Assembly (NCBI GenBank): GCA_001563335.1
Contig: LRSL01000013.1
Span: forward strand, 1-64,000
Length of the DNA: 64,000 bases
From: Candidatus Thorarchaeota archaeon SMTZ1-45
Lineage (GTDB): Archaea > Asgardarchaeota > Thorarchaeia > Thorarchaeales > Thorarchaeaceae
Direction: 5' to 3'
Part shown: positions 1 to 13,516 of the stretch, in pieces
Layout: the number at the start of each line of letters is the position of its first letter
Numbering within the stretch: position 1 is the first letter of the stretch
Notes under the pieces: model-generated
Database searches by the model: none
Seen by the model: the letters and a program-made list of their open reading frames with translations, nothing else
What the model was told of the DNA's origin: nothing
Program-made: the position numbers and the translations under genes

Positions 1-3000
1 AGTAGGTTCAGAGCCTATCGGAAGCCCAATACCATCGTTTCCATTTGATGTACTATCATAGACGGTTCCAGCTGGGTCTTCACTGAGATGCCACACGGCG
101 GCAAAGGAAGTATCCCAGACACCTTCAGAATCTTCATAACTGTTTGAATAAGGATCTCCATAATACATCGAAAAGACTGTATCTGACGCAGATGATAGGT
201 CCATTCTTACCCATGCAATAAGATGGGCATGTGAAGAGTTATACGACTGGTCAAATAGCTCAACTTCGTGGGGGAGTATCCAGCCATCCTTAACAAAAAC
301 AATATCGTCACCGTCTGACTGAACATCCGTTCGAAGGTCAATATCATACATATCAATAAGGACTGGAAATCCAGTGAGGTCTGAAGCAACTTTATTGTGG
401 TCTATTATGATGTCTTTCTTGTACATGAATCTTAGGGGAATTTCCTTTGGTATGATGACTTCACGCTCAATCCCAACTGCGTAGAAGCTAGGTGGATCAA
501 GCTGATTGTTATACTCTGTAAGAATCCACTGTGAGGAAATTGTATCATGGAGAACTCGAACTTCGTCAATTATTGCTCTTGCAAAGAGATTGGGTGATCC
601 AGCATTGTCGTAGTTGTCGCATGCAGCAATCAGAAACGGTTCCACAGAGTTGATATTTCCATATCCAGTAATATCGACAGGCGAAGTTGGCACCTCGGAT
701 CCATCGATATATAAATGAAGCCAGCTTCCCGCCCTTACCATTACAGCGTAATGCCAGAAACCATCATTCAGTGCTGACGCCGAATATATGGAGATTTTTC
801 CGGGTGTACCCGAATTGTCATCAATCTCTGCTTTTACTGTTCCTGAGCCCGTGATTGATATCATGTATCTGTAAGCATTTGTCCCGATGGCTCCTTTCAT
901 AGCCAGTGGTACATCCAAATCCGTCGAGGCGAACCACACACTCATGGCAAAATCATTGTAACCCACTGTAAGCGGAGTAGTATTTCCGCAGTCTACATAG
1001 TCATTCGAACCATCAAAGTCGACAGCATTACCTATATGTCCAATCACTCGGTCACTCTGAGTCATAGATCCATATGTGGTTCCATCATTTCCTTTGTAAG
1101 TGCTATCGATAATTTGTGGAGCCGGTAGTGCACCTGAAGGGTCATCTCCGAGGTGCCACACTCCTTGATACTGATTCCGCCAAACCTCTACAGGATTCTC
1201 TTGGTTTCCGATTGCAGGGTTGGCGTAGTACATTGTGATTAAAGTGTCAGACATCGAAGAGATGTCTACTCTTACCCAAGCGACCAAGTGTGCGTGAGTC
1301 GAGTTATATTGCTGGTTAAAAATCTCTATTTCATGTGGAAGACTCCTTCCATCTGAGGTGAACATAATATCATCACCGTCAGATTGAACCTTTGTTTTTA
1401 GGTCAGAATCGTATATGTCAATTAAAACTGGGAAATCTGTGAGATCAGATGCCACTTTGTTATGGTCGATTGTGATGTCTTTCATATATCGGAAGTTGAC
1501 ATTTTCTTCACCAACGGTCAGGAATAATTCCGGATTTCTCTGATTGTAATATTGAGTTCTAATCCATGCATCAGACCTGGCAACTGTCGAAACCCGCACC
1601 TCATCAACAATGGCATCGAGATATGATGTTCCACCGGGATTGTCAGATCTGCGACCAATTCTAACAGGTCGATCTGGGTCATTCACAGATGCTGGTATTC
1701 CTGAGGTGCTCTCATCTACTAACTCGCCATTCAGGTAGAATCTTGCATAAAATGAAGGGTGGAACACTCCCACGACATGATACCATTGATCAGTGTCAAC
1801 ACGCTCAAAGCCCACAATGTCTGTATTCACGCCATCAGGACTATACCTAAACATCCCCCATCCTGCATGACTAATAGATGGATCATAGTCAAAACTGATG
1901 TCCCAGCCACGATAGTTAGACTCTCCAGACTTGACTACAAGATAGTCATTATCGATGAAATCTGCCTTGAACCACGCCTCAACTGTGAATGCTCCAGTCA
2001 TCTGCAATTCAGTCGGATTTCCAAAATCGACATAATCGTTCACGCCTTCAAGGTCTATCGCCTTACCAATAATACCACTAACACTATCAGTTGTGGTCAT
2101 TGTTCCACCGGTTGAACCATCAAGACCGTATGATGTGCTATCTTTAATCTGAGGTTGGTGTGGTAGATAATCAGCATAGGTGGAGTCCCATTGTGGTTGC
2201 GAAGGATTGTCATTCATATGCCAAACTGCAGAATAGTCGGAGTCCCAGACCTCATCGGGCTTTTCTTGACTTCCAAGATCTTCATCACCATATACCATGA
2301 CAATTGTAGTATCTCCAACAGATGAAAGTTCAGGAATTTTGACCCAACTAACCAGATGAGCATGTGTTCCGTTTCCCTGCTTGTCAAATAATTCCAGATC
2401 ATGTGGAATCGCTTGACCATTAAAGAGGAAAGCTATGTCATCCCCATCTGCTTGAGCATTGATGTGAAGGTGTTCATCCCATATATCTACCAGGACTGGA
2501 AAGTCTTGGAGATTTGAAATGACTTTGGTATGGTCAATGACGATATTCTTGTTAAATCGAAAACTAGGTATTACATCCGAAGGAGCAGAATCAATATAGT
2601 CCACAAACAGTCTAGCAAGGTCCGCTTGAGCAAACCCTGATGAGCCTTTGATTTGATTATAGGTATATTGTTGGTTTGAATAGGCATAGTCAATCATTAT
2701 ACAGATGTAATTCCCACTTTGCCATCCGGGTCTGGACACAACCTCCTGTATAAGGGCTGCAATGTCTGGTGTATCATACCTGCCGTTAGCTGTCCACGTG
2801 GTTGGACGCCAATATACACTTGTGTTCACCCAGTCGTATCTATCAGGAAGAAGTGGGTATCCACTTGTGAACGCAGAAACATCATCCTCAGCTGCAACAT
2901 AAATACGCATTCCAGGAAAACCTGTCGAGTCACTAGGTGCTTCGACTTGAAGCCTAGTTGAAGTGATTGCCGCCCCTTGTGGAACATGTAACGGAAATTG

Positions 3001-4164
3001 AAGTCCAACCTGATAGGCAAAGGCAGTTGTCCAATCAGGATATGCCGGAATGTCAGCTCCGACATCTAACCAACCATTATTCCCATAACCGTTAAGGTCT
3101 ACGCCTCCCGATCCTCCATTCGAATCTAGTGCGCTGTAGCAATCTCTATTGCTTCCATCAGGAACATATGGACTGACACTTCCCTGAGTTGAACCAGTCA
3201 CTTTAACTCCATTTGCTAGGAGGTCAACCTGCTCAGGGAAGGGACGGACTTGCAGCCTTAGTTCAACATCGTCAATATATACTTCATGAACTGAAGATCC
3301 AGGTATACCACTTATGTCCGTGCCAAGACCTATATCAAAAATCATTGAGCCTAGATTTTCCATAGATTGGAAAGCAGATGCAGGTACTATATTTGTGGCT
3401 TGAAGCCATGTATTCATAGGTGTGCCACTTACAAACATATTGTTCTTTGAAATATAGTCCTCGATTCTAGTGAAAATGAATACGTCATTGTCCAAAATGG
3501 AAGTACTTGAAACATAGTAGCGGAATTTGATTTCTGCGGAATAGATACTTCTCCAAGGTATAGGAATCTGCTGGCTGAAATACATCTGATTTGATGGATT
3601 AAGTGTTGTTCCACTACTAGGATTAGCATCGAATCGCCATCCCCATGAATTGTCATATCCATTTCCAGAATATCCATTTATTTCGAATATACCATGCTGT
3701 GGGTGTTCAGTTCCACCAGATGCATCGAACTTCACTATTGTCCATCCATCTGGGATATAAAACGGGTCATCATTATATTCAGGATTACCAGCCATGAGAA
3801 AGTGCTCTACGTGATATGCATTAAGATTCGGATTGACCAACATCGCATCCACCCACATCGAGAGATGGTCAAGCTGCCCCTCCAGCTGTTCAGAACTCCA
3901 CCCCAGGGGAGGATTAATGCCAATGTACCCTGAATGTGAAAAGTCAATCACCGATGTTCCACTCGCGACTCTCAGCCCATTGAGATTCCCAAACAATGGA
4001 TCTCCATTTCCAGAGTTTCTATCCTGCCAATCGCTTAGTACAAAATCATCTCCATCAGAACCGACTCTTTTAGAATAAGAGAACCTCTCTTCAGGAGCAG
4101 GACCACTAGCTAAAGGTACTAAGAAAATGAATATTATTGTAAGAGATATCAATGCTTTTTTCAT
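1..4164 (-). CDS. Large secreted/surface protein with tandem DUF2341 + LamG (ConA-like) modules; partial, runs off the window edge (>1388 aa)
   Basis: Manual minus-strand translation from ATG at 4164 (MKKALISLTIIFIFLVPLASG, signal peptide-like) stays open to base 1. Three repeats of K(N/D)IxIDHxKVxSxLxxFPVL.D.YD.DL...Q.DGDDI.F...LPHE.E.F...HAHLVAWV (DUF2341), followed by LamG motifs (AIDLEGVNDYVDFG, WYHVVGV, IVDEVRVS). Absent from the ORF track because no stop lies in the window. Confidence 0.88.
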   Translation of the reverse strand, partial: MKKALISLTIIFIFLVPLASGPAPEERFSYSKRVGSDGDDFVLSDWQDRNSGNGDPLFGNLNGLRVASGTSVIDFSHSGYIGINPPLGWSSEQLEGQLDHLSMWVDAMLVNPNLNAYHVEHFLMAGNPEYNDDPFYIPDGWTIVKFDASGGTEHPQHGIFEINGYSGNGYDNSWGWRFDANPSSGTTLNPSNQMYFSQQIPIPWRSIYSAEIKFRYYVSSTSILDNDVFIFTRIEDYISKNNMFVSGTPMNTWLQATNIVPASAFQSMENLGSMIFDIGLGTDISGIPGSSVHEVYIDDVELRLQVRPFPEQVDLLANGVKVTGSTQGSVSPYVPDGSNRDCYSALDSNGGSGGVDLNGYGNNGWLDVGADIPAYPDWTTAFAYQVGLQFPLHVPQGAAITSTRLQVEAPSDSTGFPGMRIYVAAEDDVSAFTSGYPLLPDRYDWVNTSVYWRPTTWTANGRYDTPDIAALIQEVVSRPGWQSGNYICIMIDYAYSNQQYTYNQIKGSSGFAQADLARLFVDYIDSAPSDVIPSFRFNKNIVIDHTKVISNLQDFPVLVDIWDEHLHINAQADGDDIAFLFNGQAIPHDLELFDKQGNGTHAHLVSWVKIPELSSVGDTTIVMVYGDEDLGSQEKPDEVWDSDYSAVWHMNDNPSQPQWDSTYADYLPHQPQIKDSTSYGLDGSTGGTMTTTDSVSGIIGKAIDLEGVNDYVDFGNPTELQMTGAFTVEAWFKADFIDNDYLVVKSGESNYRGWDISFDYDPSISHAGWGMFRYSPDGVNTDIVGFERVDTDQWYHVVGVFHPSFYARFYLNGELVDESTSGIPASVNDPDRPVRIGRRSDNPGGTSYLDAIVDEVRVSTVARSDAWIRTQYYNQRNPELFLTVGEENVNFRYMKDITIDHNKVASDLTDFPVLIDIYDSDLKTKVQSDGDDIMFTSDGRSLPHEIEIFNQQYNSTHAHLVAWVRVDISSMSDTLITMYYANPAIGNQENPVEVWRNQYQGVWHLGDDPSGALPAPQIIDSTYKGNDGTTYGSMTQSDRVIGHIGNAVDFDGSNDYVDCGNTTPLTVGYNDFAMSVWFASTDLDVPLAMKGAIGTNAYRYMISITGSGTVKAEIDDNSGTPGKISIYSASALNDGFWHYAVMVRAGSWLHLYIDGSEVPTSPVDITGYGNINSVEPFLIAACDNYDNAGSPNLFARAIIDEVRVLHDTISSQWILTEYNNQLDPPSFYAVGIEREVIIPKEIPLRFMYKKDIIIDHNKVASDLTGFPVLIDMYDIDLRTDVQSDGDDIVFVKDGWILPHEVELFDQSYNSSHAHLIAWVRMDLSSASDTVFSMYYGDPYSNSYEDSEGVWDTSFAAVWHLSEDPAGTVYDSTSNGNDGIGLPIGSEPT

Positions 4165-4345
4165 ACTACCTGCTCCTTATGATAACCACTGTGAATGGAA
4201 CAACAAAGTATCAAAATATCAAAAAATAAGATAATCTAGTATATTCGGATACAATTTTTGGTATCATTAGACACTAAATCGAATATTTACAGTAAAATTG
4301 CGGACCAATGGGAAATATATGAACATTCAAAAGAGTGCCAATCCA

Positions 4346-4978
4346 TTAATCCAAAGAGAACTCAATTCTATCTTTAGAAATTAGCTCATTGAGGGCTGGG
4401 GGATTAAGTAGTTCGACTTCAAATTTCTTCTTGGAGATTAATCTAGTTTCTTCTGGAACCAATAAGGATTCAAGAGACGCACATGAGAAAAGAGCTGTTA
4501 AATCCAGTCTTTTGAGTGGATTCTGAAGGAGGTTCAGCTTCTCTAGTTTTACACATCTTGCGAGTGGGGAAAGGTCCAAATTCATGAACCGATTACTCTC
4601 TAGGTTGAGCGAAACAAGATTCTTACATTCTAATAATGCAGAGAGATCAACTCTTAGTAGCTGATTAAAACTCAAATCCAAATGCTCCAGAAGTGAACAA
4701 TAGCCTACCATTTCTAGGTTCAAAATCTGTAAATTGTTGTGACTCAGGACTAGTTTACGAACTGCAGGACTAAATGCCAGAACAGTCAAGTCAACCGTCA
4801 TTAGTTTATTCTCGCTTAGACTGAGTTCCTCAAGAGTGTCAAGTTTGTCAAGCTCAGAGAGGTCTATTGCGATGATTTCTCTCTTTGAGAGATCTAGTAT
4901 TTTTGAATGTGAGGCGATTGGAATTGAGCTATTGGTGCCATCTGATAAGGTGACATTGACTTCTATCACTTTCAACAC
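4346..4978 (-). CDS. Leucine-rich repeat protein (24-aa LRR units)
   Basis: Repeats LEELSLSENKLMTVDLTVL / LEHLDLSFNQLLRVDLSAL / LVSLNLESNRFMNLDLSPL / LEKLNLLQNPLKRLDLTAL match LxxLxLxxNxL. Confidence 0.88.
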   Translation of the reverse strand: MLKVIEVNVTLSDGTNSSIPIASHSKILDLSKREIIAIDLSELDKLDTLEELSLSENKLMTVDLTVLAFSPAVRKLVLSHNNLQILNLEMVGYCSLLEHLDLSFNQLLRVDLSALLECKNLVSLNLESNRFMNLDLSPLARCVKLEKLNLLQNPLKRLDLTALFSCASLESLLVPEETRLISKKKFEVELLNPPALNELISKDRIEFSLD

Positions 4979-5237: not shown

Positions 5238-6542
5238 GTGGTTGTCGTAAAGATGCAAATTCCGGGAACCAACATTGACGTAAGTCTTAAGGTAAATCGT
5301 ATATACATTACAGACCCGGCTGTCACTCGAAGGCTCAAGTTTTCTGGAAAATCATTCAAAGATATCATGGAGGAAGTACAACGATTTGCCTATCTTCGGG
5401 GATTCAATGTTCCCCACCCTATTCTCAAGTTCATTTTGAAAAGAGTTGGACTTCCTGAGGTGGATGTGATACCTGGAGAGGATGAGTTAACAAAGGATGA
5501 CCTTCTTGAACTCTCTCGAGCACTGAATGCGCTTGATACACTAAAAGATGAATTCCTTTCTCCAACTGGAAAGGGCAAGCTATCCGATGATCTCAAGAGC
5601 AATGTAATAGTGTCCACCCCCGATCTTGAAGACTTGGAAACAGACACCCTTGCCCCACAGACACTTGAAGACCTGAAGACAGACACTCCAGCCCCGCAGA
5701 CAATGAGCGTCTGGGATGTTCCTCTCAGTGAGGAAGTCAAAGGTTTAGTCTACTCCTTCCATGCAGAGAATCTCCCAACAAGCACACCCACCCCACGAAC
5801 ACAATCAGCTGATGATGAAACAAAACCAGTGAAATTCATTTGGGATGAACCAGAAGTTATAGCATCCCTGGAAGATATATCAGAAGAGGCGAAATCATCA
5901 GTTGAAGATGTTTCTGACTTATTAGATCTCAAGGTCTTATTCCTTGGCGAAGAAGGCGTTGGAGTCAATAGCATAATCTTCGAATGTAATCTGAAACTCG
6001 GAAACGATTACTCTTCTCTTGACTTACCCCCGACTAGACCATTTACATTCAGCAACATAGTTGAGTACAAAGAAACGAATGTTCGTGTTGACGCATGGAC
6101 GTTCAACAAGAGTATGGAAGCAAAGGTTCCTAAGACAGAGTTCTATACAGGATCTGGAATGGTTGTGCTTGTTTACTCTGTTGCAGATAGATGGAGCTTT
6201 GATAGTCTTGATTTCTGGGTACGAGAGGTATCCAATGCTTTCTTGATTCCACCACCCATAATAATTGTCGGAAATAAGACAGATCTTCGTGATCATCCAG
6301 TCATTGAGGACGAGGATGATGAGCCAGAAATTCCTGTTTCAACCGAAGAAGCTCGTGAATACTGTGATAAAGTCGCAAAATCTTTGGGTGAAAACGGACA
6401 AGCTCATCCACTCTTCTTTATTGAAACTTCAACAATTACTGGAGTAGGAATCACTGAACTACTGAATAAGATTGTAGACTTCTGGCATGTCAATGAACGC
6501 CCAAGTATGCCAGCAACTGAACAACATGTCCCAACACATTGA
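5238..6542 (+). CDS. Ras/Rab-superfamily small GTPase domain with a long acidic N-terminal extension; G1 and G3 degenerate
   Basis: C-terminal half: LKVLFLGEEGVGVNSI (G1-like), VRVDAWT (G3 position), FYTGSGMVVLVYSVADRWSFDSLDFWVREV, IIIVGNKTDLR (G4), FFIETSTITGVGITEL (G5). Confidence 0.85.
   Translation: MVVVKMQIPGTNIDVSLKVNRIYITDPAVTRRLKFSGKSFKDIMEEVQRFAYLRGFNVPHPILKFILKRVGLPEVDVIPGEDELTKDDLLELSRALNALDTLKDEFLSPTGKGKLSDDLKSNVIVSTPDLEDLETDTLAPQTLEDLKTDTPAPQTMSVWDVPLSEEVKGLVYSFHAENLPTSTPTPRTQSADDETKPVKFIWDEPEVIASLEDISEEAKSSVEDVSDLLDLKVLFLGEEGVGVNSIIFECNLKLGNDYSSLDLPPTRPFTFSNIVEYKETNVRVDAWTFNKSMEAKVPKTEFYTGSGMVVLVYSVADRWSFDSLDFWVREVSNAFLIPPPIIIVGNKTDLRDHPVIEDEDDEPEIPVSTEEAREYCDKVAKSLGENGQAHPLFFIETSTITGVGITELLNKIVDFWHVNERPSMPATEQHVPTH
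5625..5702 (+). repeat. In-frame 39-bp imperfect tandem duplication (LEDLETDTLAPQT / LEDLKTDTPAPQT)
   Basis: cttgaagacttggaaacagacacccttgccccacagaca followed by cttgaagacctgaagacagacactccagccccgcagaca. Confidence 0.85.
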
Positions 6543-6964: not shown

Positions 6965-7045
6965 AACTCCTGACTCTTATAGTTTCCAAAAGCCTCATAA
7001 TGTAATCAAGTACCAGCAGATTGAACTCAGATTGAGGTCTGAAGA

Positions 7046-8404
7046 ATGGATTTCTACAAAGTAGCTGGCACTGAACCAATTGGTAACGAAGTTCGAACTC
7101 ATTTCAGTAACCAGATAACAGCTGAAATAGCTGGTACTGATGTAGTCCTAATGGGATGGGTCCACATACTCAGAGATAAAGGAAAACTCAAGTTTCTTGT
7201 TCTGAGAGACGAGCGTGGGACTGTACAAGTAACAATTCCTCAGAAAAGGGTGCCAGAAGAAGTCTTCAAAACCTCAGGGTTACTAAAACCTGAAACCGCA
7301 GTTTCAGTCACAGGGAAAGTTACAGCTGCCAAACAAGTTGCCTCGGGAGCTGAAGTGATTCCAAGGAAGATTCGGATCTTGAACACATCTGAGCGTCTTC
7401 CAATTGATGTCGTTGAAGGAAAAACAGACATTGACCTTGATACAAGACTCAACAATAGAGTCCTCGACTTGAGAAAACCATCAATCAATGCCATCTTCAA
7501 GGTCCAACATAACCTCGTTCGTTTTGCAAGGGCATTTTTGGAGAGCAATGACTTTATTGAGATACACACACCCAAACTTGTCGCTGAAGCGACTGAGGGA
7601 GGTGCTAACCTATTCGAAGTCAAGTATTTCGACAGGAAGGCATACCTGGCTCAGAGTCCCCAATTCTACAAACAGCTCATGCTTTTAGCTGGGTTTGGGC
7701 GAGTCTATGAGATTGCCCCAGTGTTTAGAGCTGAGAAGCACAATACCCGTCGTCATGTCAACGAGTATACATCATTCGATTATGAGATGGCTTGGATTAG
7801 TGGCGTGGAAGATGTCATGAAGATGGAGGAAAACATGCTCCATCATTCATTCAAGATGACTAAGAAGCATGCTGCTGCAGAGTTGGAAATCTTGGGTGTT
7901 GATCTACAGATACCAAAAGTTCCCTTCAAGAGAATCAAATATTCAGAAGCTATTGAACTTGTCAACGAAGCAGGCAAGGGTCTCACAATAACTGATGACC
8001 TTGACCCCGAGTGTGAACGTCTCTTAGGTGAAATATTCCCTAAAAAGTATGGGACAGATATGGTATATATCACACACTATCCCTTGGAGCTTCGTCCAGC
8101 TTATACAATGCCAAGCATGACAGATGAAGGTATGACTGAGAGCTTTGATTTGACCTATAAAGGCATGGAGATTACGACAGGCAGCCAGCGTATTCATCTG
8201 TATGATTTACTTGTAGAGCGGTTCAAGGCTAAGGGCTTTAATCCTGATGATTTTGCATTCTATCTAGACCCCTTCAAATATGGAGCACCGCCTCATGGTG
8301 GTTTAGGACTTGGAGTTGAGCGAATGACCATGCAACTCCTGGGCATTGAAAACATACGTGAGGCTACTCTACTGCCACGAGATCGCGATCGTCTGACACC
8401 TTAG
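7046..8404 (+). CDS. aspS: Aspartyl-tRNA synthetase (archaeal type, possibly non-discriminating)
   Basis: OB fold GWVHILRDKG; TRLNNRVLDLR; LAQSPQFYKQ; motif 2 FRAEKHNTRRHVNEY; motif 3 GAPPHGGLGLGVER; ends PRDRDRLTP. Confidence 0.96.
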   Translation: MDFYKVAGTEPIGNEVRTHFSNQITAEIAGTDVVLMGWVHILRDKGKLKFLVLRDERGTVQVTIPQKRVPEEVFKTSGLLKPETAVSVTGKVTAAKQVASGAEVIPRKIRILNTSERLPIDVVEGKTDIDLDTRLNNRVLDLRKPSINAIFKVQHNLVRFARAFLESNDFIEIHTPKLVAEATEGGANLFEVKYFDRKAYLAQSPQFYKQLMLLAGFGRVYEIAPVFRAEKHNTRRHVNEYTSFDYEMAWISGVEDVMKMEENMLHHSFKMTKKHAAAELEILGVDLQIPKVPFKRIKYSEAIELVNEAGKGLTITDDLDPECERLLGEIFPKKYGTDMVYITHYPLELRPAYTMPSMTDEGMTESFDLTYKGMEITTGSQRIHLYDLLVERFKAKGFNPDDFAFYLDPFKYGAPPHGGLGLGVERMTMQLLGIENIREATLLPRDRDRLTP

Positions 8405-8477: not shown

Positions 8478-9245
8478 ATGCACCTAATGCACGAGCGACT
8501 TCACTCAGAACTCTATGCTTCAATTGCTACACTTGATCAATTGAAGAAATTATATGACCTTGGTGCAGTAGATATTCGTTCGTACCAACGAGAGTCGCAA
8601 GCTCTTCTACAAGATGTTCGTTCACAGCTAGAGAACATGAAGCGAATGGGTTTTGATATCAGCACGTTCGTGTCAACTGAACGCATAATCGAGGCTTTTC
8701 CTGAAGCTGCCAATCTGCTTCGACTTAGCAGTCATGCTCCAAGGCGGTCACTTCAAGGGATGACTTTGGACCAATTCTATGATTATATTGGTCTAGCTGT
8801 GCTTGATGTGGCTACAGAGCATTCATCAAAGGGACTAATGGGGTTGGCTGAACTAATAGTCGAGGTTGTAAGACGTCTTCCAGAACTTGAATCTGTGACA
8901 TATAATGATGTCATCGAGTCTGTGAACCGTGTTGCTGACAATGGCCTTATCCCAGGAATACGCACGCTTCGAGGCGGAGTCAAAGTTGTAGAGTTACGAC
9001 CCCTCGAGCTGAGACGTGACCAAGCAGATGTAATTAATCTGGCAGCATCAAAAGGATATGTTTCTGTTGAAGAAGTAATTATGCAAATGAAGTGGTCTGA
9101 GGATCATGCTCGACAAGTTTTATCCAGTTTGGTTGAGGCTGGCATGGCTGTTGCTGATATCCGCTTTTCAACAGGCGGTCGATATTACTTCCCTGGACTC
9201 AGAGCTCGCGATAGTTCTGATCCAAGAGTAACAGGTGCATACTAA
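8478..9245 (+). CDS. ESCRT-II Vps22/Vps36-like (EAP30) tandem winged-helix protein with an N-terminal Vps28-like domain
   Basis: aa ~98-242 (DQFYDYIGLAVLDV...GLMGLAEL...PLELRRDQADVINLAASKGYVSVEEVIMQMKWSEDHARQVLSSLVEAGMAVAD...YYFPGL) align by eye with the Vps22/SNF8 WH domains. aa ~1-83 (SELYASIATLDQLKKLYDLGAVDIRSYQRESQALL...ISTFV...PEAANLL) resemble the Vps28 N-terminal core. Confidence 0.82.
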   Translation: MHLMHERLHSELYASIATLDQLKKLYDLGAVDIRSYQRESQALLQDVRSQLENMKRMGFDISTFVSTERIIEAFPEAANLLRLSSHAPRRSLQGMTLDQFYDYIGLAVLDVATEHSSKGLMGLAELIVEVVRRLPELESVTYNDVIESVNRVADNGLIPGIRTLRGGVKVVELRPLELRRDQADVINLAASKGYVSVEEVIMQMKWSEDHARQVLSSLVEAGMAVADIRFSTGGRYYFPGLRARDSSDPRVTGAY

Positions 9246-9247
9246 GA

Positions 9248-9955
9248 TTATGTTGAAATAAGAATTGCTCCTTTCTTAACCAAAAGTGCTAATACAATGT
9301 GAATGTCTTTTTCTGGCAGACTCGCAAAGTCCTCTTTGACTTCCTGTATAACTATTGACTTTACATCAAGTCTAAGTTTTCCTTTCTTGAGTGCCCACTG
9401 ATACAGAATATCTGCCCAATCCTCAAGAGGTCGCCAATAGACTCTCAATTGTCGTTTTTTCTTGTCTATCCACTCAGCAACTTGCTTGTCTATTAATACT
9501 GCAGCAATCGCATTGAAGGAGTCTACCTTATTCCTCAAATCCTTGAATGGTGGCTCACCTATGAAGGTAGCAAGTGAGAGAATATGCACATTATTCCCCT
9601 CTGTCCACTCTAATAGAAAATCTGCCCATTCCTCAGCCCAAAGTAATTTATCCTCTTCTCTTGTAGGAATACCATACATCCATTCAGTTTCTTCAATATC
9701 TCCCCAGTCAGGCATAATGAAATCAAGTTCCGTCACTACAGTTTTGGTAGCTGTTTCATCAACAACCTCAATTTTTACCTCAGGTTCTTCAGTTTCAGTT
9801 GGTTCTGAAATCTCTACGACAACCTCGGGGGAATGAACCTCCTCCTCTATGATAATCTCATCAACAGAAGGAGCTGACTCGACTTTTTCTTTTTCAACAG
9901 TTGAGGTTGTTTCCTTCGTTTTGGTCTTTTCCTTTTTCCTCTCCCGCACGCCCAC
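9248..9955 (-). CDS. vps25: ESCRT-II Vps25-like protein with an acidic N-terminal extension
   Basis: WAEEWADFLLEW...AEWIDKKKRQLRVYWRPLEDWADILYQW is the Vps25 signature (AEW.D......YWR.PEEWA.LIY.W); directly downstream of vps4 (3-bp gap). Confidence 0.85.
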   Translation of the reverse strand: MGVRERKKEKTKTKETTSTVEKEKVESAPSVDEIIIEEEVHSPEVVVEISEPTETEEPEVKIEVVDETATKTVVTELDFIMPDWGDIEETEWMYGIPTREEDKLLWAEEWADFLLEWTEGNNVHILSLATFIGEPPFKDLRNKVDSFNAIAAVLIDKQVAEWIDKKKRQLRVYWRPLEDWADILYQWALKKGKLRLDVKSIVIQEVKEDFASLPEKDIHIVLALLVKKGAILIST

Positions 9956-9958
9956 TCT

Positions 9959-11176
9959 TTAGGAACCCTCCGCCCAGTCAATGTATCTCTTGACATCCTC
10001 TGGGGGAGTTGCTGGGCGGATGTTTTCTATAGCATGCAGGAAATCATCCCGTGACACGGGGCGGATGTCCAATATCTCCTGCTCATCATCCATTCTACCA
10101 GTACGCTGCAAATCCCTAATTGGTTCCATGGCTGCCTCACGACAGACAACACTAATGTCTCTTCCACTATATCCCTCTGTAAGATCTGCCAGCTCGTCAT
10201 ATTCAACAGTTGGTGAAACCTCAACATCTTCCATATGAATCTCGAAAATCTTTGCTCGTGCCTCTCTATCTGGGAGTGGAACATGTATCTTCTTCTCAAA
10301 CCTGGAACGTAATGCGAAATCCAATTCCCATGGGAGATTCGTTGCTCCGATGAGTGTTATGCGATCTTCCTCATCGCTGGCAAGACCTTGAAGCTCTGTG
10401 AGTAACTGTGTCTTAAGACGTCTCTCGCCTCCCACATCATCACCTGACCTAGAAACACCAATTGAATCTAGCTCATCGATGAAGATTATCGCTGGTTGAT
10501 TTTTTCTTGCTAAATCAAATAAGCTCATCACAAGCCTCTCCGATTCACCCAGCCACTTGCTTACAATATTCGCAGCTGAAACATTGAAGAATGTTGCATT
10601 AACCTCCGATGCTACAGCTTTAGCAACAAGTGTTTTTCCACAACCTGCAGGTCCATAGAACAAAATCCCTCGCCATGGTTGTCTAGCTTTCCCCTTGAAG
10701 AGCTCAGGATGTTTCATGGGCGCAATTATTGCATCATCAATTGCTTGTTTTGCATCTGCAAGACCTGCAACCTCCGACATCTTCATTCTTGGACGTTCTG
10801 ATATGATGGTGTCAGAGATCATTTCTCTGAGTCTCTTCTCCTCCTCATCTAGCTCTGCTACTGCCTTTGAAGTTTCTTGGATTGGTACTTGCTCTGCAGG
10901 ACCAACATCAACCTTTGGAGGAACCATAAGACCATCAACTGGTCCATGGGATTTTTTCTTTATTCCAGAAAGATACCTTACCCTATCTACACATTCTTGA
11001 GCTCGGTCAAGATAGTGCTTTTTGACAGAAGGCAATGCCGCAGAGTTTGATAACTTGATCAGAATCTTACTTGCCTTGAGATACTCCTGACAAGCGTCTT
11101 TCTTCATACCTCTATTATCAAGTTCTATTGCTTTGGCAAGCAAAGCCTTTAGTCCATGGTCAACTCGATCCGCCAT
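9959..11176 (-). CDS. vps4: Vps4 AAA+ ATPase with N-terminal MIT domain
   Basis: MIT (KAIELD...ACQEYLKA...YLDRAQ); EVAGLADAKQAI; PWRGILFYGPAGCGKT; SKWLGESERLV; IIFIDELD; ERRLKTQLL; GATNLPWELD. Confidence 0.95.
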   Translation of the reverse strand: MADRVDHGLKALLAKAIELDNRGMKKDACQEYLKASKILIKLSNSAALPSVKKHYLDRAQECVDRVRYLSGIKKKSHGPVDGLMVPPKVDVGPAEQVPIQETSKAVAELDEEEKRLREMISDTIISERPRMKMSEVAGLADAKQAIDDAIIAPMKHPELFKGKARQPWRGILFYGPAGCGKTLVAKAVASEVNATFFNVSAANIVSKWLGESERLVMSLFDLARKNQPAIIFIDELDSIGVSRSGDDVGGERRLKTQLLTELQGLASDEEDRITLIGATNLPWELDFALRSRFEKKIHVPLPDREARAKIFEIHMEDVEVSPTVEYDELADLTEGYSGRDISVVCREAAMEPIRDLQRTGRMDDEQEILDIRPVSRDDFLHAIENIRPATPPEDVKRYIDWAEGS

Positions 11177-11318: not shown

Positions 11319-11936
11319 GTGAGATATTTGGGTTCAATTAGAAAGGCATTCTCCTGGGGTAGAAAGAAACCGGACATTGGTGAAATATCCAGCCGCCTCA
11401 GGATATTGTCAAAACAATTAGCGCGCCAAAGGAACAAGTTGGAGAAGGAAGAACGTGATGCAAAATCTCGTGCTGTCCGAGCAAGAAAGGCTAGTCAGAT
11501 GGAAGCATATCGAACATATGCTACTGAGATGGTGCGATTTCGAAGATATGCTCTTTCCGTTGATAAGTCACGGCTTCAGATTCTAAAGATTCTAGCTCAT
11601 CTAAATCGTGCTCAAACTTCTGCAAAGACACAGATCGCCCTTCAAGAGGTTGCAAAGATACTTGGAATGCTCGGAGATGGCACGGATGCTTCGAAAGTTG
11701 TTGCTAATGTTGATGAGATTGCTCGACGCCTTGAGGAGTTCGAGATTGAAGCTAGCATCTCTGACGAAGCACTTGATTCAACTATGGAAGTGACGTCTGA
11801 AGACATGACCTTCGCCTTTCAAGAAATTGATGCTGAGGCTGGACTCGCTGATGCATCTACAGCTGCGAAACCTATAGGTGAAGCTGAGTCTTTGGAGGAA
11901 GACATCAAAGCATTAGAACGTGAACTTGGTGTATAA
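11319..11936 (+). CDS. ESCRT-III (Snf7 family, Vps2/24/46-like) subunit
   Basis: Basic N-terminal hairpin (LRILSKQLARQRNKLEKEE...AYRTYATEMVRFRR), acidic C-terminus with MIM1-like end ESLEEDIKALERELGV; divergent from vps4. Confidence 0.88.
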   Translation: MRYLGSIRKAFSWGRKKPDIGEISSRLRILSKQLARQRNKLEKEERDAKSRAVRARKASQMEAYRTYATEMVRFRRYALSVDKSRLQILKILAHLNRAQTSAKTQIALQEVAKILGMLGDGTDASKVVANVDEIARRLEEFEIEASISDEALDSTMEVTSEDMTFAFQEIDAEAGLADASTAAKPIGEAESLEEDIKALERELGV

Positions 11937-11938
11937 TA

Positions 11939-13516
11939 CTACCAGAGCTTGTCACGAGTATCTCTTGTGACGCGTTCAATCTCGCGTCTGTTATGATACG
12001 AGTCTCTCATAAGGTCTCTATATCTTCTGATGAAATCTTCAGTAACAAGCTGCCCACTTCGCAACATATGGACTGTATCCCGAATTGCATCTTCAATGGA
12101 TGCAGCGTCTCTTCGCAATGAATGTAATCTAGGACTCACATCATAGGTCGGATGCGGATTTTGTGTCTGATCGTATCGTTTCATGACCCTGTCTAATTCA
12201 TCACGAAATGATTCAGGTTTCCTGTAATAGCTATCATAAGGACTTCTTCGAACAGGTGTTGACCCCCAACCCCCAACCTGCTGTTTGAAACCAGGTCTCA
12301 TCAGAAACCGTTCTTCCTCATATTGTACTCTATCATTAGTTGAAAGTAATGAATATACCATCCCCTCAATCTTGAGTCTTACATCGCTAGTGCCAACATC
12401 TGTCTGTTCTATTTTCCTAACCCTTTGCATGTCTGTCTGTATATACTTCTCAAACTTTCTAGCAATCTCAATATAATCCGGTAGAACTCTCTTTGTTTGG
12501 TCTGAACAGGTCGCTTTGATTTCACCCTGTTTTAGTTTCAGAACTACACGTTTTCTGAGTCGTCCATCTTCTTCAATGGACTTTAGGTAAATCAATGGAA
12601 AATCAAAGATTGTTTCCATCTTCTTTCTTACTCGTCCAGTTTCTGCAATGAAAAGAAGTCTCTTGTTAGTGATAAAGAGTGTTCCCAATGCTTTATCATT
12701 CTTGAGAAAGTCACTCCCCGCGATCTTGATTTCAGGAAGTGCACAGACTGGAAGCTCTCCGACAGACAACTGGCCATGCTCATAGAATGTTGCGAATTGT
12801 CCTTTATAGTAGTCGAGTCCATCAAGTTGTCTTCTAATGTCCTTTAATGTGTTCTTGAGTGGTTCAAGTGCTTCATCAACATTTTGTCTATAATAGATAC
12901 CCATCTCAGTGATTCTGTTAGTTATACCCTCAATGAATGGGAATTGCGTTGGATTCCATTGAGTATAGTCTATGAAATTCTTAGTTTCCGCAGCCATCCT
13001 CTTTGCAATGATTTCAGCTTGGCTAGAGATTCTATTCTTAATAGCTGGAAGTTCGTTCTGAATAGCTTCAATCTTTTCCTCTATCCATCTGTAATGGAGA
13101 AAGTTAGCCATCCTAAGTGACACGAGTAATCTTTTCGCATTCGCTAACTTATTGGTGAACTCTCTGAGCTTTGTATGACCATATTGAATGGTCATTATTG
13201 CATGTCTCATATCTAAAGCTAGCGACCTTCTTCGATCTTCTAGAAGTACGACTCTAGTAGAGTGGCATCTAGGACAGATATCAACAGTCTTTCTTCCCTT
13301 ACTCAGATTTTCCGACTCACATTGTGGACACTCTTCGAATTTTTCCCCTGGGACAGGAGTGCCAAGGGTGTGATGACAATCACTACAGACGGTGTATTCA
13401 CTTGACCTCGATTCAAGGCATTCAGAACACAGGGCCGCTCCACAATCCTCACACATGTGAGTCGCTCTGTTTGACTGGCAAGATTTACAGTGTCCAGATG
13501 AAGGATCTTTTATCAA
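11939..13516 (-). CDS. Zn-finger + coiled-coil + GRAM/PH-like + C-terminal Vps23/Vps37-like steadiness-box protein (putative ESCRT-I-related)
   Basis: CxxC pairs and a B-box-like CKSC..HMCEDC..LCSEC; ALGTLFITNKRLLFI...DFPLIYLKSIE (GRAM/GLUE-like); C-terminal IEDAIRDTVHMLRSGQLVTEDFIRRYRDLMRDSYHNRREIE. TTG start with an upstream GGAGGT. Confidence 0.65.
   Translation of the reverse strand: MIKDPSSGHCKSCQSNRATHMCEDCGAALCSECLESRSSEYTVCSDCHHTLGTPVPGEKFEECPQCESENLSKGRKTVDICPRCHSTRVVLLEDRRRSLALDMRHAIMTIQYGHTKLREFTNKLANAKRLLVSLRMANFLHYRWIEEKIEAIQNELPAIKNRISSQAEIIAKRMAAETKNFIDYTQWNPTQFPFIEGITNRITEMGIYYRQNVDEALEPLKNTLKDIRRQLDGLDYYKGQFATFYEHGQLSVGELPVCALPEIKIAGSDFLKNDKALGTLFITNKRLLFIAETGRVRKKMETIFDFPLIYLKSIEEDGRLRKRVVLKLKQGEIKATCSDQTKRVLPDYIEIARKFEKYIQTDMQRVRKIEQTDVGTSDVRLKIEGMVYSLLSTNDRVQYEEERFLMRPGFKQQVGGWGSTPVRRSPYDSYYRKPESFRDELDRVMKRYDQTQNPHPTYDVSPRLHSLRRDAASIEDAIRDTVHMLRSGQLVTEDFIRRYRDLMRDSYHNRREIERVTRDTRDKLW

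Follow-up and report, generated by a model that had tools for sequence, protein, structure and literature searches.

A single open reading frame (ORF) from Candidatus Thorarchaeota archaeon SMTZ1-45 raises two questions: (i) does it join part of Vps28, an ESCRT-I subunit, to part of Vps22, an ESCRT-II subunit, in one polypeptide chain and (ii) if so, how might such a gene have arisen and what might its product do. In eukaryotes, ESCRT-I and ESCRT-II are joined non-covalently, with the Vps28 C-terminal domain (CTD) binding to ESCRT-II (Vps36). The initial annotation of this DNA, made from the letters and their ORF translations, had proposed a covalent link that skips the CTD and had called it an informative evolutionary state. 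Our reading, to which we assign a probability of roughly 85%, is that the gene encodes an ESCRT-I/ESCRT-II chimera that arose by deletion–fusion, that its N-terminal domain docks onto a neighbouring protein carrying a steadiness box (SB) and that a peptide bond replaces the non-covalent hand-off between the two complexes.

The ORF lies in the window, by which we mean the whole 64,000-nucleotide stretch that was analysed (positions 1 to 64,000 of contig LRSL01000013.1, assembly GCA_001563335.1). The features relevant to the argument are as follows.

8478..9245, + strand: Vps28N–Vps22(WH) fusion ORF, 255 aa, coordinates including the stop codon; probable start at ATG 8487
8487..8738, + strand: Vps28 N-terminal domain, aa 4–87 (HMMs, hhalign, AF2 model, structure comparison)
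8739..8765, + strand: linker and fusion junction, aa 88–96 (low pLDDT, poor conservation)
8766..9212, + strand: Vps22/EAP30 tandem winged-helix core, aa 97–245 (Pfam, 3cuq_A match, Foldseek)
9248..9955, − strand: Vps25-like ESCRT-II subunit, 235 aa (PF05871 at aa 108–194, E 5.8e-11)
9959..11176, − strand: Vps4, with MIT, AAA and Vps4_C domains (Pfam)
11319..11936, + strand: ESCRT-III, Snf7 family (Pfam)
11939..13516, − strand: 525-aa protein with Zn ribbons, a PH-like domain, a coiled coil and a C-terminal steadiness box
11957..12154, − strand: steadiness-box hairpin region of the 525-aa protein, about aa 455–520 (Pfam, hhalign)

Translation of the fusion gene probably starts at ATG 8487 rather than at 8478, because most homologues begin at the second methionine (MHERL...). 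The Vps25-like gene is convergent with the fusion gene and lies 2 nt downstream of it, and the genes for Vps25, Vps4, ESCRT-III and the SB protein are all found at most 4.3 kb away. The SB-bearing protein is a conserved member of the ESCRT cluster in Thorarchaeota (hereafter Thor). Pfam assigns to this 525-aa neighbour a weak bPH_3 match, Vps23_core at aa 470–511 and Mod_r, and its SB region aligns to the Vps28 N-terminal domain (Vps28-N) with an hhalign probability of 37%.

By Pfam alone, the resemblance of the N-terminus to Vps28 is marginal: aa 10–78 match positions 2–70 of the 188-position VPS28 profile with E 1.1e-3 and 19.3 bits, below the cut-off of 24.5. A score under the cut-off leaves room for a different reading, in which the N-terminus is the ordinary helical region of Vps22, diverged in sequence and similar to Vps28 only through a coincidental hairpin likeness. 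Foldseek of the whole model points the same way in that its alignment to human Vps22 extends over 215 columns and takes in the N-terminal helices, but at an rmsd of 17. We ran profile searches in both directions, taking as reference a set of 30 loci that encode canonical full-length Vps28 and represent 13 other (non-Thor) Asgard families. An HMM built on aa 4–92 of a 24-sequence alignment of the Thor N-domain matches the Vps28 N-domain at every one of the 30 loci (39–67 bits, E 6e-12 to 2e-20); the 28 Vps22 ORFs within the same 240-ORF set all go unmatched. The reciprocal HMM, made from the 30 Asgard Vps28 N-domains, matches the fusion ORF with 68.1 bits (E 4.1e-19); of the genome's 14,667 six-frame ORFs it finds no other, the next best having E 0.0027.

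Comparison of profiles with profiles separates the two readings further. Aligned by hhalign to Asgard Vps28-N, the fusion N-domain gives a probability of 99.4% (E 7.8e-22, 83 columns); aligned to the N-terminal region of the 28 non-Thor Asgard Vps22 proteins, it gives 0.2%. Four control pairings, involving the Vps28 CTD, the neighbour's coiled coil, the neighbour's SB region and the winged helices versus Vps28-N, fall between 0.1 and 5.4%. The N-domain is 22–38% identical to 24 Vps28-N sequences in an almost gapless alignment (a single one-residue indel), and it keeps the residues conserved in canonical Vps28-N (L12, Y13, A17, T18, L19, Y36, Q39, L54, F64 and P75), with the conserved motif ELYASIATLD in helix 1. 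A profile of this N-domain/Vps28-N alignment, searched against the PDB, finds yeast Vps28 (2f66_B, E 2.4e-5) and human VPS28 (6vme_E, E 0.0076); Vps23 follows with an E-value of just 0.3, and chains of Vps22 or Vps36 are absent from the matches.

The predicted structure agrees with these assignments. The AF2 model of the N-domain (pLDDT 85, pTM 0.74) folds as a hairpin (H2–27/H33–56) followed by three short helices at aa 61–81. The ten best Foldseek matches are all Vps28 chains (TM 0.59–0.70, rmsd 2.1–4.4), with weak E-values of 0.07–0.4, as can be expected of a helical domain of 85 residues. Superposition on the yeast ESCRT-I Vps28 chain had been suggested in the initial annotation; in a VIA-align comparison with 48,161 chains, human VPS28 (6vme_E) ranks first (Z 11.9, rmsd 2.0, 81 residues aligned) and yeast Vps28 (2caz_E) second (Z 9.7), whereas generic hairpins reach a Z of at most 8.5 over at most 69 residues. 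The match to 6vme_E spans all five helices of Vps28-N. Vps23 SB chains are also found (2p22_A, Z 7.7; 2f66_A, Z 7.6), aligned over the hairpin; Vps28-N contains a hairpin of the SB type. The best 50 VIA-align rows hold no Vps22 or Vps36 chains, an absence that by itself excludes nothing.

The N-domain is therefore a bona fide Vps28 N-terminal domain, and the Vps28 core pattern that had been noted in aa 1–83 corresponds to the only such match in the genome. The identification of these 83 residues as ordinary Vps22 N-helices is refuted by the reciprocal 68-bit unique match, the hhalign contrast and the five-helix structural correspondence, and we leave it only the slimmest of chances.

The C-terminal half is identified without difficulty. 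Pfam EAP30 matches aa 85–227 at profile positions 82–218 of 219 (E 1.3e-13, 51.6 bits), and human SNF8 (3cuq_A) is matched with E 4e-20 in sequence and 7.2e-8 by Foldseek, in agreement with the tandem winged helices originally placed at aa ~98–242. What is missing is equally clear. In all three of the non-Thor Asgard Vps22 proteins tested, the EAP30 match runs from profile positions 1–2 to 216–218, and an HMM of the non-Thor Vps22 N-terminal region, searched over the six-frame ORFs of the genome, does not match the fusion ORF. A Thor-only protein of ~790 aa encoded elsewhere in the window's genome (contig C118) does combine orthodox Vps22 N-helices with winged helices, and is a candidate Vps36 analogue that might pair with the fusion protein. 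On the Vps28 side, the Pfam match ends at profile position 70, the CTD corresponds to positions ~100–188 and the sequence beyond aa 97 consists of winged helices. An HMM of the Asgard Vps28 CTD leaves the fusion ORF unmatched and has no significant match in the genome as a whole (best E 0.014). Given the lack of a CTD match and the winged helices after aa 97, this is a Vps28-N-domain protein and not a full Vps28. Both the orthodox Vps22 N-helices (EAP30 positions 1–81), which in eukaryotes help Vps22 to pair with Vps36, and the four-helix Vps28 CTD are absent. The architecture is a Vps28 N-domain, a linker of ~9 residues and two Vps22 winged helices; the model has pLDDT below 50 at aa 87–89, within the junction that had been named at ~8730–8770 (aa 85–98). 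Fusion of Vps28(N) to Vps22 in one chain, with the Vps28 CTD skipped, is thus what the sequence encodes.

A contiguous junction on one contig could in principle reflect chimeric assembly or read-through from one gene into the next. Against this, a profile of the whole fusion is matched at full length (positions 1 to at least 244) in 68 of the 77 genomes that represent the window's family. The gene is also full length in the single genome of the sister family, which belongs to the same taxonomic order; there the PF03997 match falls within the fused ORF. Among 138 homologues from many assemblies, the 120 that were listed have 77–100% query cover, and fusion-protein homologues of 61–91% identity carry the source label Thorarchaeota. 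Four runs, each from a different study, yield Logan contigs that span 8730–8770 with no differences, although one of the runs may be the source sample. Family-wide conservation, the homologues and the bridging contigs together rule out a misassembled junction, and the chance that the fusion is an artefact is negligible. Separate trees of the two halves, as the initial annotation had recommended, place each half of the Thor proteins in a single clade (SH-aLRT 100). No RNA data sets holding the fusion gene were listed. Outside the window's family and its sister family, the distribution survey of 301 sampled Asgard genomes yielded no whole-fusion match beginning before profile position 19, and most matches cover the winged helices only, from position ~85.

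We also looked for a standalone Vps28 in the Thor lineage. Among 86 genomes of the family, PF03997 exceeds its cut-off once, with 25.6 bits, in a coiled-coil protein of 441 aa. Orthologs of this protein are matched more weakly, and the window's genome encodes one of them. Seven of these orthologs, aligned by hhalign to the Asgard Vps28 profiles, reach at most 1%, and phmmer against the PDB finds no Vps28; we therefore do not accept the protein as Vps28. Thor Vps5-BAR proteins are described as often fused to Vps28 in the accessible text of Eme et al. 2023 (PMC10307638), and the 441-aa protein may be this Vps28–Vps5-BAR fusion. Three further weak matches to the Vps28-N or CTD HMMs (C46, C19 and C76; E 0.003–0.014) were set aside, as Pfam identifies them as a Na/H exchanger tail, as coiled-coil proteins or as nothing.

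The second question, that of origin, can be approached from gene order in other Asgard lineages. At 28 of the 30 non-Thor loci, representing 13 families, vps28 lies directly upstream of vps22 and in the same direction, and the distance between the two genes ranges from −65 to 441 nt; the remaining two loci stop at a contig edge. Because vps28 immediately precedes vps22 on the same strand in these lineages, the Thor gene is probably derived from such a pair by deletion–fusion, in which the CTD of Vps28 and the N-helices of Vps22 were lost. On the simplest reading, an in-frame deletion would have extended from the middle of vps28, removing its 3′ half, to about codon 90 of vps22, removing its 5′ third. 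We found no evolutionary intermediate of this process, and the proposed origin draws on synteny in the other lineages. One non-Thor locus has the order UEV-Vps23, Vps28, a 97-aa ORF, Vps22 and a convergent Vps25; its convergent Vps22/Vps25 layout is the arrangement seen in the window.

Searching the full-length fusion profile against 1.84 billion cluster representatives returned two representatives that carry the fusion at full length, P0119 (Thor) and P0200 (a sister type), together with fragments. Local HMMs run on the 150 best matches of this search revealed two more fused forms. P0205 (299 aa, MAG protein with source label Odinarchaeia) has a Vps28 N-domain at aa 24–106 (54.6 bits) and P0206 (315 aa, MAG protein with source label Ranarchaeia) has one at aa 19–96 (45.7 bits). 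In both proteins the N-domain stands ahead of the winged-helix pair, with linkers longer than that of the Thor protein, and the local HMMs detect neither a Vps28 CTD nor a Vps22 N-terminal region. A full-length fusion of the P0205 type was not found among 400 species-representative Asgard genomes.

These additional forms bear on whether the fusion arose once or several times. In unrooted maximum-likelihood (ML) trees the fused forms appear at three places among the unfused lineages: P0200 groups with Thor (support 99), P0205 is nested among four unfused families that form a clade (98–99) and P0206 falls near two other families with weak support. Branches enclosing P0205 and the Thor group have SH-aLRT values of 98–99. 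The junctions and linkers also differ in length among the fused forms (about 9, 40 and 70 aa). A grouping of every fused form in one clade survives the AU tests (p 0.154 and 0.142; this group was named after the tree had been seen), and for this reason the trees only suggest that the fusions originated independently.

The same data are relevant to the possibility that the fused form is ancestral, a state preceding the split that gave rise to separate Vps28 and Vps22 proteins. Fused forms are known in more than one Asgard lineage, and a single fused clade survives the AU tests on trees that have no root. However, separate, adjacent and full-length vps28 and vps22 genes are present in 13 sampled families, and the two proteins are separate in eukaryotes too. 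The ML trees scatter the fused forms over three places, with the SH-aLRT values given above around P0205 and Thor, and their junctions and linkers differ in length. Fission of an ancestral fusion would moreover require the CTD of Vps28 and the N-helices of Vps22 to have appeared de novo. We consider an ancestral fusion improbable. The interpretation made in the initial annotation is supported, but its informative evolutionary state is likelier to be a derived, lineage-specific deletion–fusion of adjacent genes than an ancestral intermediate.

The recurrence of the same double loss is worth considering. It is possible, though we would put the whole proposal at well under even odds, that adjacent vps28 and vps22 genes have fused repeatedly (in the Thor order, P0205 and P0206) with loss of the same two modules each time. 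Were the fusions independent, the co-loss would mark the CTD of Vps28 and the N-helices of Vps22 as mutual docking partners in the unfused Asgard ESCRT machinery. Their contact would then represent an archaeal precursor of the one that eukaryotes make between the Vps28 CTD and Vps36, and ESCRT-I and ESCRT-II of Thor would be hard-wired together and ubiquitin-independent. A predicted complex of non-Thor Vps22 (aa 1–244) with the Vps28 CTD (aa 104–222) scored 0.00 (mark 0.32), a result with no bearing either way. More generally, a tethered lineage shows which parts of Vps28 and Vps22 become dispensable, and these parts therefore serve as a pointer to where the ancestral interface lay.

As to what the protein does, the fusion is real, conserved and suggestive of a function. 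In solved ESCRT-I headpieces the Vps28-N hairpin is packed against the steadiness boxes of Vps23 and Vps37. Because the Thor N-domain is homologous to the Vps28 part of this headpiece, we infer that its docking partner is the 525-aa SB protein encoded 2.7 kb away, with the Vps28-N hairpin packing on the steadiness-box hairpin of that protein. Profile similarity between the N-domain and the neighbour's SB region is weak (hhalign 5.4%) and is silent on binding either way. The Zn ribbons and PH-like domain of the neighbour could then bring the complex to membrane or cargo, and the winged helices of the fusion protein could bind the Vps25-like neighbour, with Vps25 recruiting ESCRT-III and Vps4. 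The fusion would in this way functionally join ESCRT-I and ESCRT-II, and the peptide bond would take over from the hand-off mediated elsewhere by the Vps28 CTD. As far as the available portions of the sources extend, ubiquitin is absent from Thor (Hatano 2022, PMC9192718) and UEV-Vps23 is absent from Loki and Thor (bioRxiv 2023.07.25.550441), and their absence fits a streamlined, ubiquitin-independent pathway.

An alternative role for the hairpin is that of a self-association module, standing in for the lost Vps22 N-helices and not serving mainly as an ESCRT-I link. The Thor 'Vps22' ortholog, which is without orthodox N-helices, is described as interacting with itself in yeast two-hybrid assays, and hairpins of the SB type are known to form homo- and hetero-oligomers, as in Odin, where a Vps23 dimer binds one Vps28 (both from the part of Hatano 2022, PMC9192718, that we consulted). 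The winged helices could equally well mediate such self-interaction, however, and the hypothesis does not account for the retention of residues that are conserved in canonical Vps28-N or for the conservation of an SB-bearing protein in the cluster. We regard self-association as an unlikely main role, although it is the most credible of the competing explanations, and favor docking of the N-domain onto the SB neighbour.

How much of this is new can be judged by comparison with published work. Asgard Vps22 (cog.002769) has been described as fused to a steadiness box and named Vps22#, an 'Asgard specific version' (Makarova et al. 2024, PMC11188069), and the SB–Vps22 architecture is therefore already known in general form. 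Compared by published description, Vps22# and the Thor protein are alike in having a hairpin domain of the SB type ahead of two winged helices; the difference is that the N-terminal part is called only 'an SB' in the portion of that paper available to us, whereas here it is a complete Vps28 N-domain that replaces the N-helices. The same study describes, in its accessible text, a Znr_PH_CC_SB family, whose domain order is that of the 525-aa neighbour (PMC11188069). A full-text literature search returned no title or abstract on a Vps28–Vps22 fusion among its results. Nowhere in the sections of the sources that were available did we see the SB of Thor Vps22 identified as an entire Vps28 N-domain in place of the Vps22 N-helices, or traced back to a neighbouring gene; the figures and supplements of Makarova et al. 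may say more. Because the architecture is already in print, the present result refines and explains a known feature and is not a discovery of it. What it adds is an exact assignment of the N-domain, the recognition that two modules have been lost, an origin proposed from synteny and the finding of similar fusions in two further lineages.

The closest experimental counterpart is ThorAB25_09030 (Hatano 2022, PMC9192718), an evident ortholog of the same length class and with the same N-terminal motif, from a locus with the same gene order of SB protein, ESCRT-III, Vps4, Vps25 and Vps22. It is labelled and treated there as plain Vps22, and the consulted text makes no mention of a Vps28 domain. Supplementary Data 1 of that study labels the neighbour (ThorAB25_08990) 'SB' and contains no Thor Vps28, although in the text available to us the SB protein of Thor is described as one that 'may interact with Vps28' (PMC9192718). 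The same authors, by the account in that text, could not find the ESCRT-I/II bridge in Odin (PMC9192718). The protein assayed as 'Vps22' can now be reinterpreted, in that any interaction with the SB protein may stem from its Vps28 domain.

Relative to canonical Vps28 (PF03997; yeast 2CAZ, 2F66 and 2P22, human 6VME), the fusion has the sequence family and fold of the N-domain in common, but in place of the four-helix CTD that contacts ESCRT-II in eukaryotes it carries Vps22 winged helices. Relative to canonical Vps22/SNF8 (PF04157; human 3CUQ and 2ZME, yeast 1U5T), the tandem winged helices match, but the fusion is without the N-terminal helical region that other Asgard Vps22 proteins keep. A further parallel is the UEV-Vps23–Vps28 protein of Heimdall (HeimAB125_14070; Hatano 2022, PMC9192718), in which, as far as it is described in the available text, a Vps28 domain is likewise fused to a neighbouring ESCRT subunit. 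That fusion lies within ESCRT-I and retains a full Vps28, whereas the Thor fusion crosses the boundary between ESCRT-I and ESCRT-II and drops the Vps28 CTD.

The fusion gene, which joins the Vps28 N-domain to Vps22 winged helices, contains in-frame ATGs at 8478 and 8487, separated by 9 nt. The annotated start (8478) is probably three codons too early, because most homologues of the fusion protein begin at the second ATG (MHERL...). At the other end of the gene, around its 3′ end and the point where it meets the convergent vps25, every contig from the four public runs breaks off between 9170 and 9238; in one of the four, coverage picks up again at 9268, where the contig has a loose end. A repeat at 9170–9270, or variation among strains, may account for these stops.

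The ESCRT cluster is preceded, 2 kb upstream, by a gene whose product places its GTPase domain at the C-terminus (aa 232–413), after an acidic, low-complexity segment of ~230 aa:

5238–6542, plus strand, 434-aa protein with a Ras/Roc-type small GTPase domain

Vps28N–winged-helix fusions are also represented by P0205 and P0206, two MAG proteins with the source labels Odinarchaeia and Ranarchaeia, respectively, from the profile search; their linkers are longer than that of the window's fusion protein. The full-length P0205 form was not found among 400 representative Asgard genomes. Where vps28 and vps22 are separate adjacent genes, in non-Thor Asgard loci, the gap is 285–441 nt in 8 of 28, and in loci with a gap of ~300 nt the two genes are separated by an ORF, as in L026:

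L026 2114–2407, plus strand, 97-aa ORF between vps28 and vps22

A second EAP30-like protein is encoded on contig C118 of the window's genome (locus L048), with a GTPase gene and a coiled-coil gene nearby:

2071–4443, minus strand, EAP30-like protein of ~790 aa
6085–6936, plus strand, Arf-like GTPase with a longin-like N-terminus
7025–7591, plus strand, 188-aa CdvA-like coiled-coil protein

The C-terminus of the EAP30-like protein consists of orthodox Vps22-type N-helices and two winged helices: a non-Thor Vps22-N HMM matches aa 567–638, and EAP30 profile positions 51–214 match aa 602–766 (21 bits). Its relatives span 733–805 aa, and every named one is labelled Thorarchaeota. It may act as an analogue of Vps36 and pair with the fusion protein.

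A further protein of the window's genome is encoded on contig C107 (locus L046):

1498–2739, minus strand, 413-aa coiled-coil protein

Vps28 kinship of this protein is unsupported in profile–profile comparison with Asgard Vps28 (≤1%). Its orthologs give weak Pfam VPS28 matches (profile positions 10–186, 18–25 bits), and the protein may correspond to what Eme et al. 2023 (PMC10307638) describe as a 'Vps28-Vps5-BAR' fusion.
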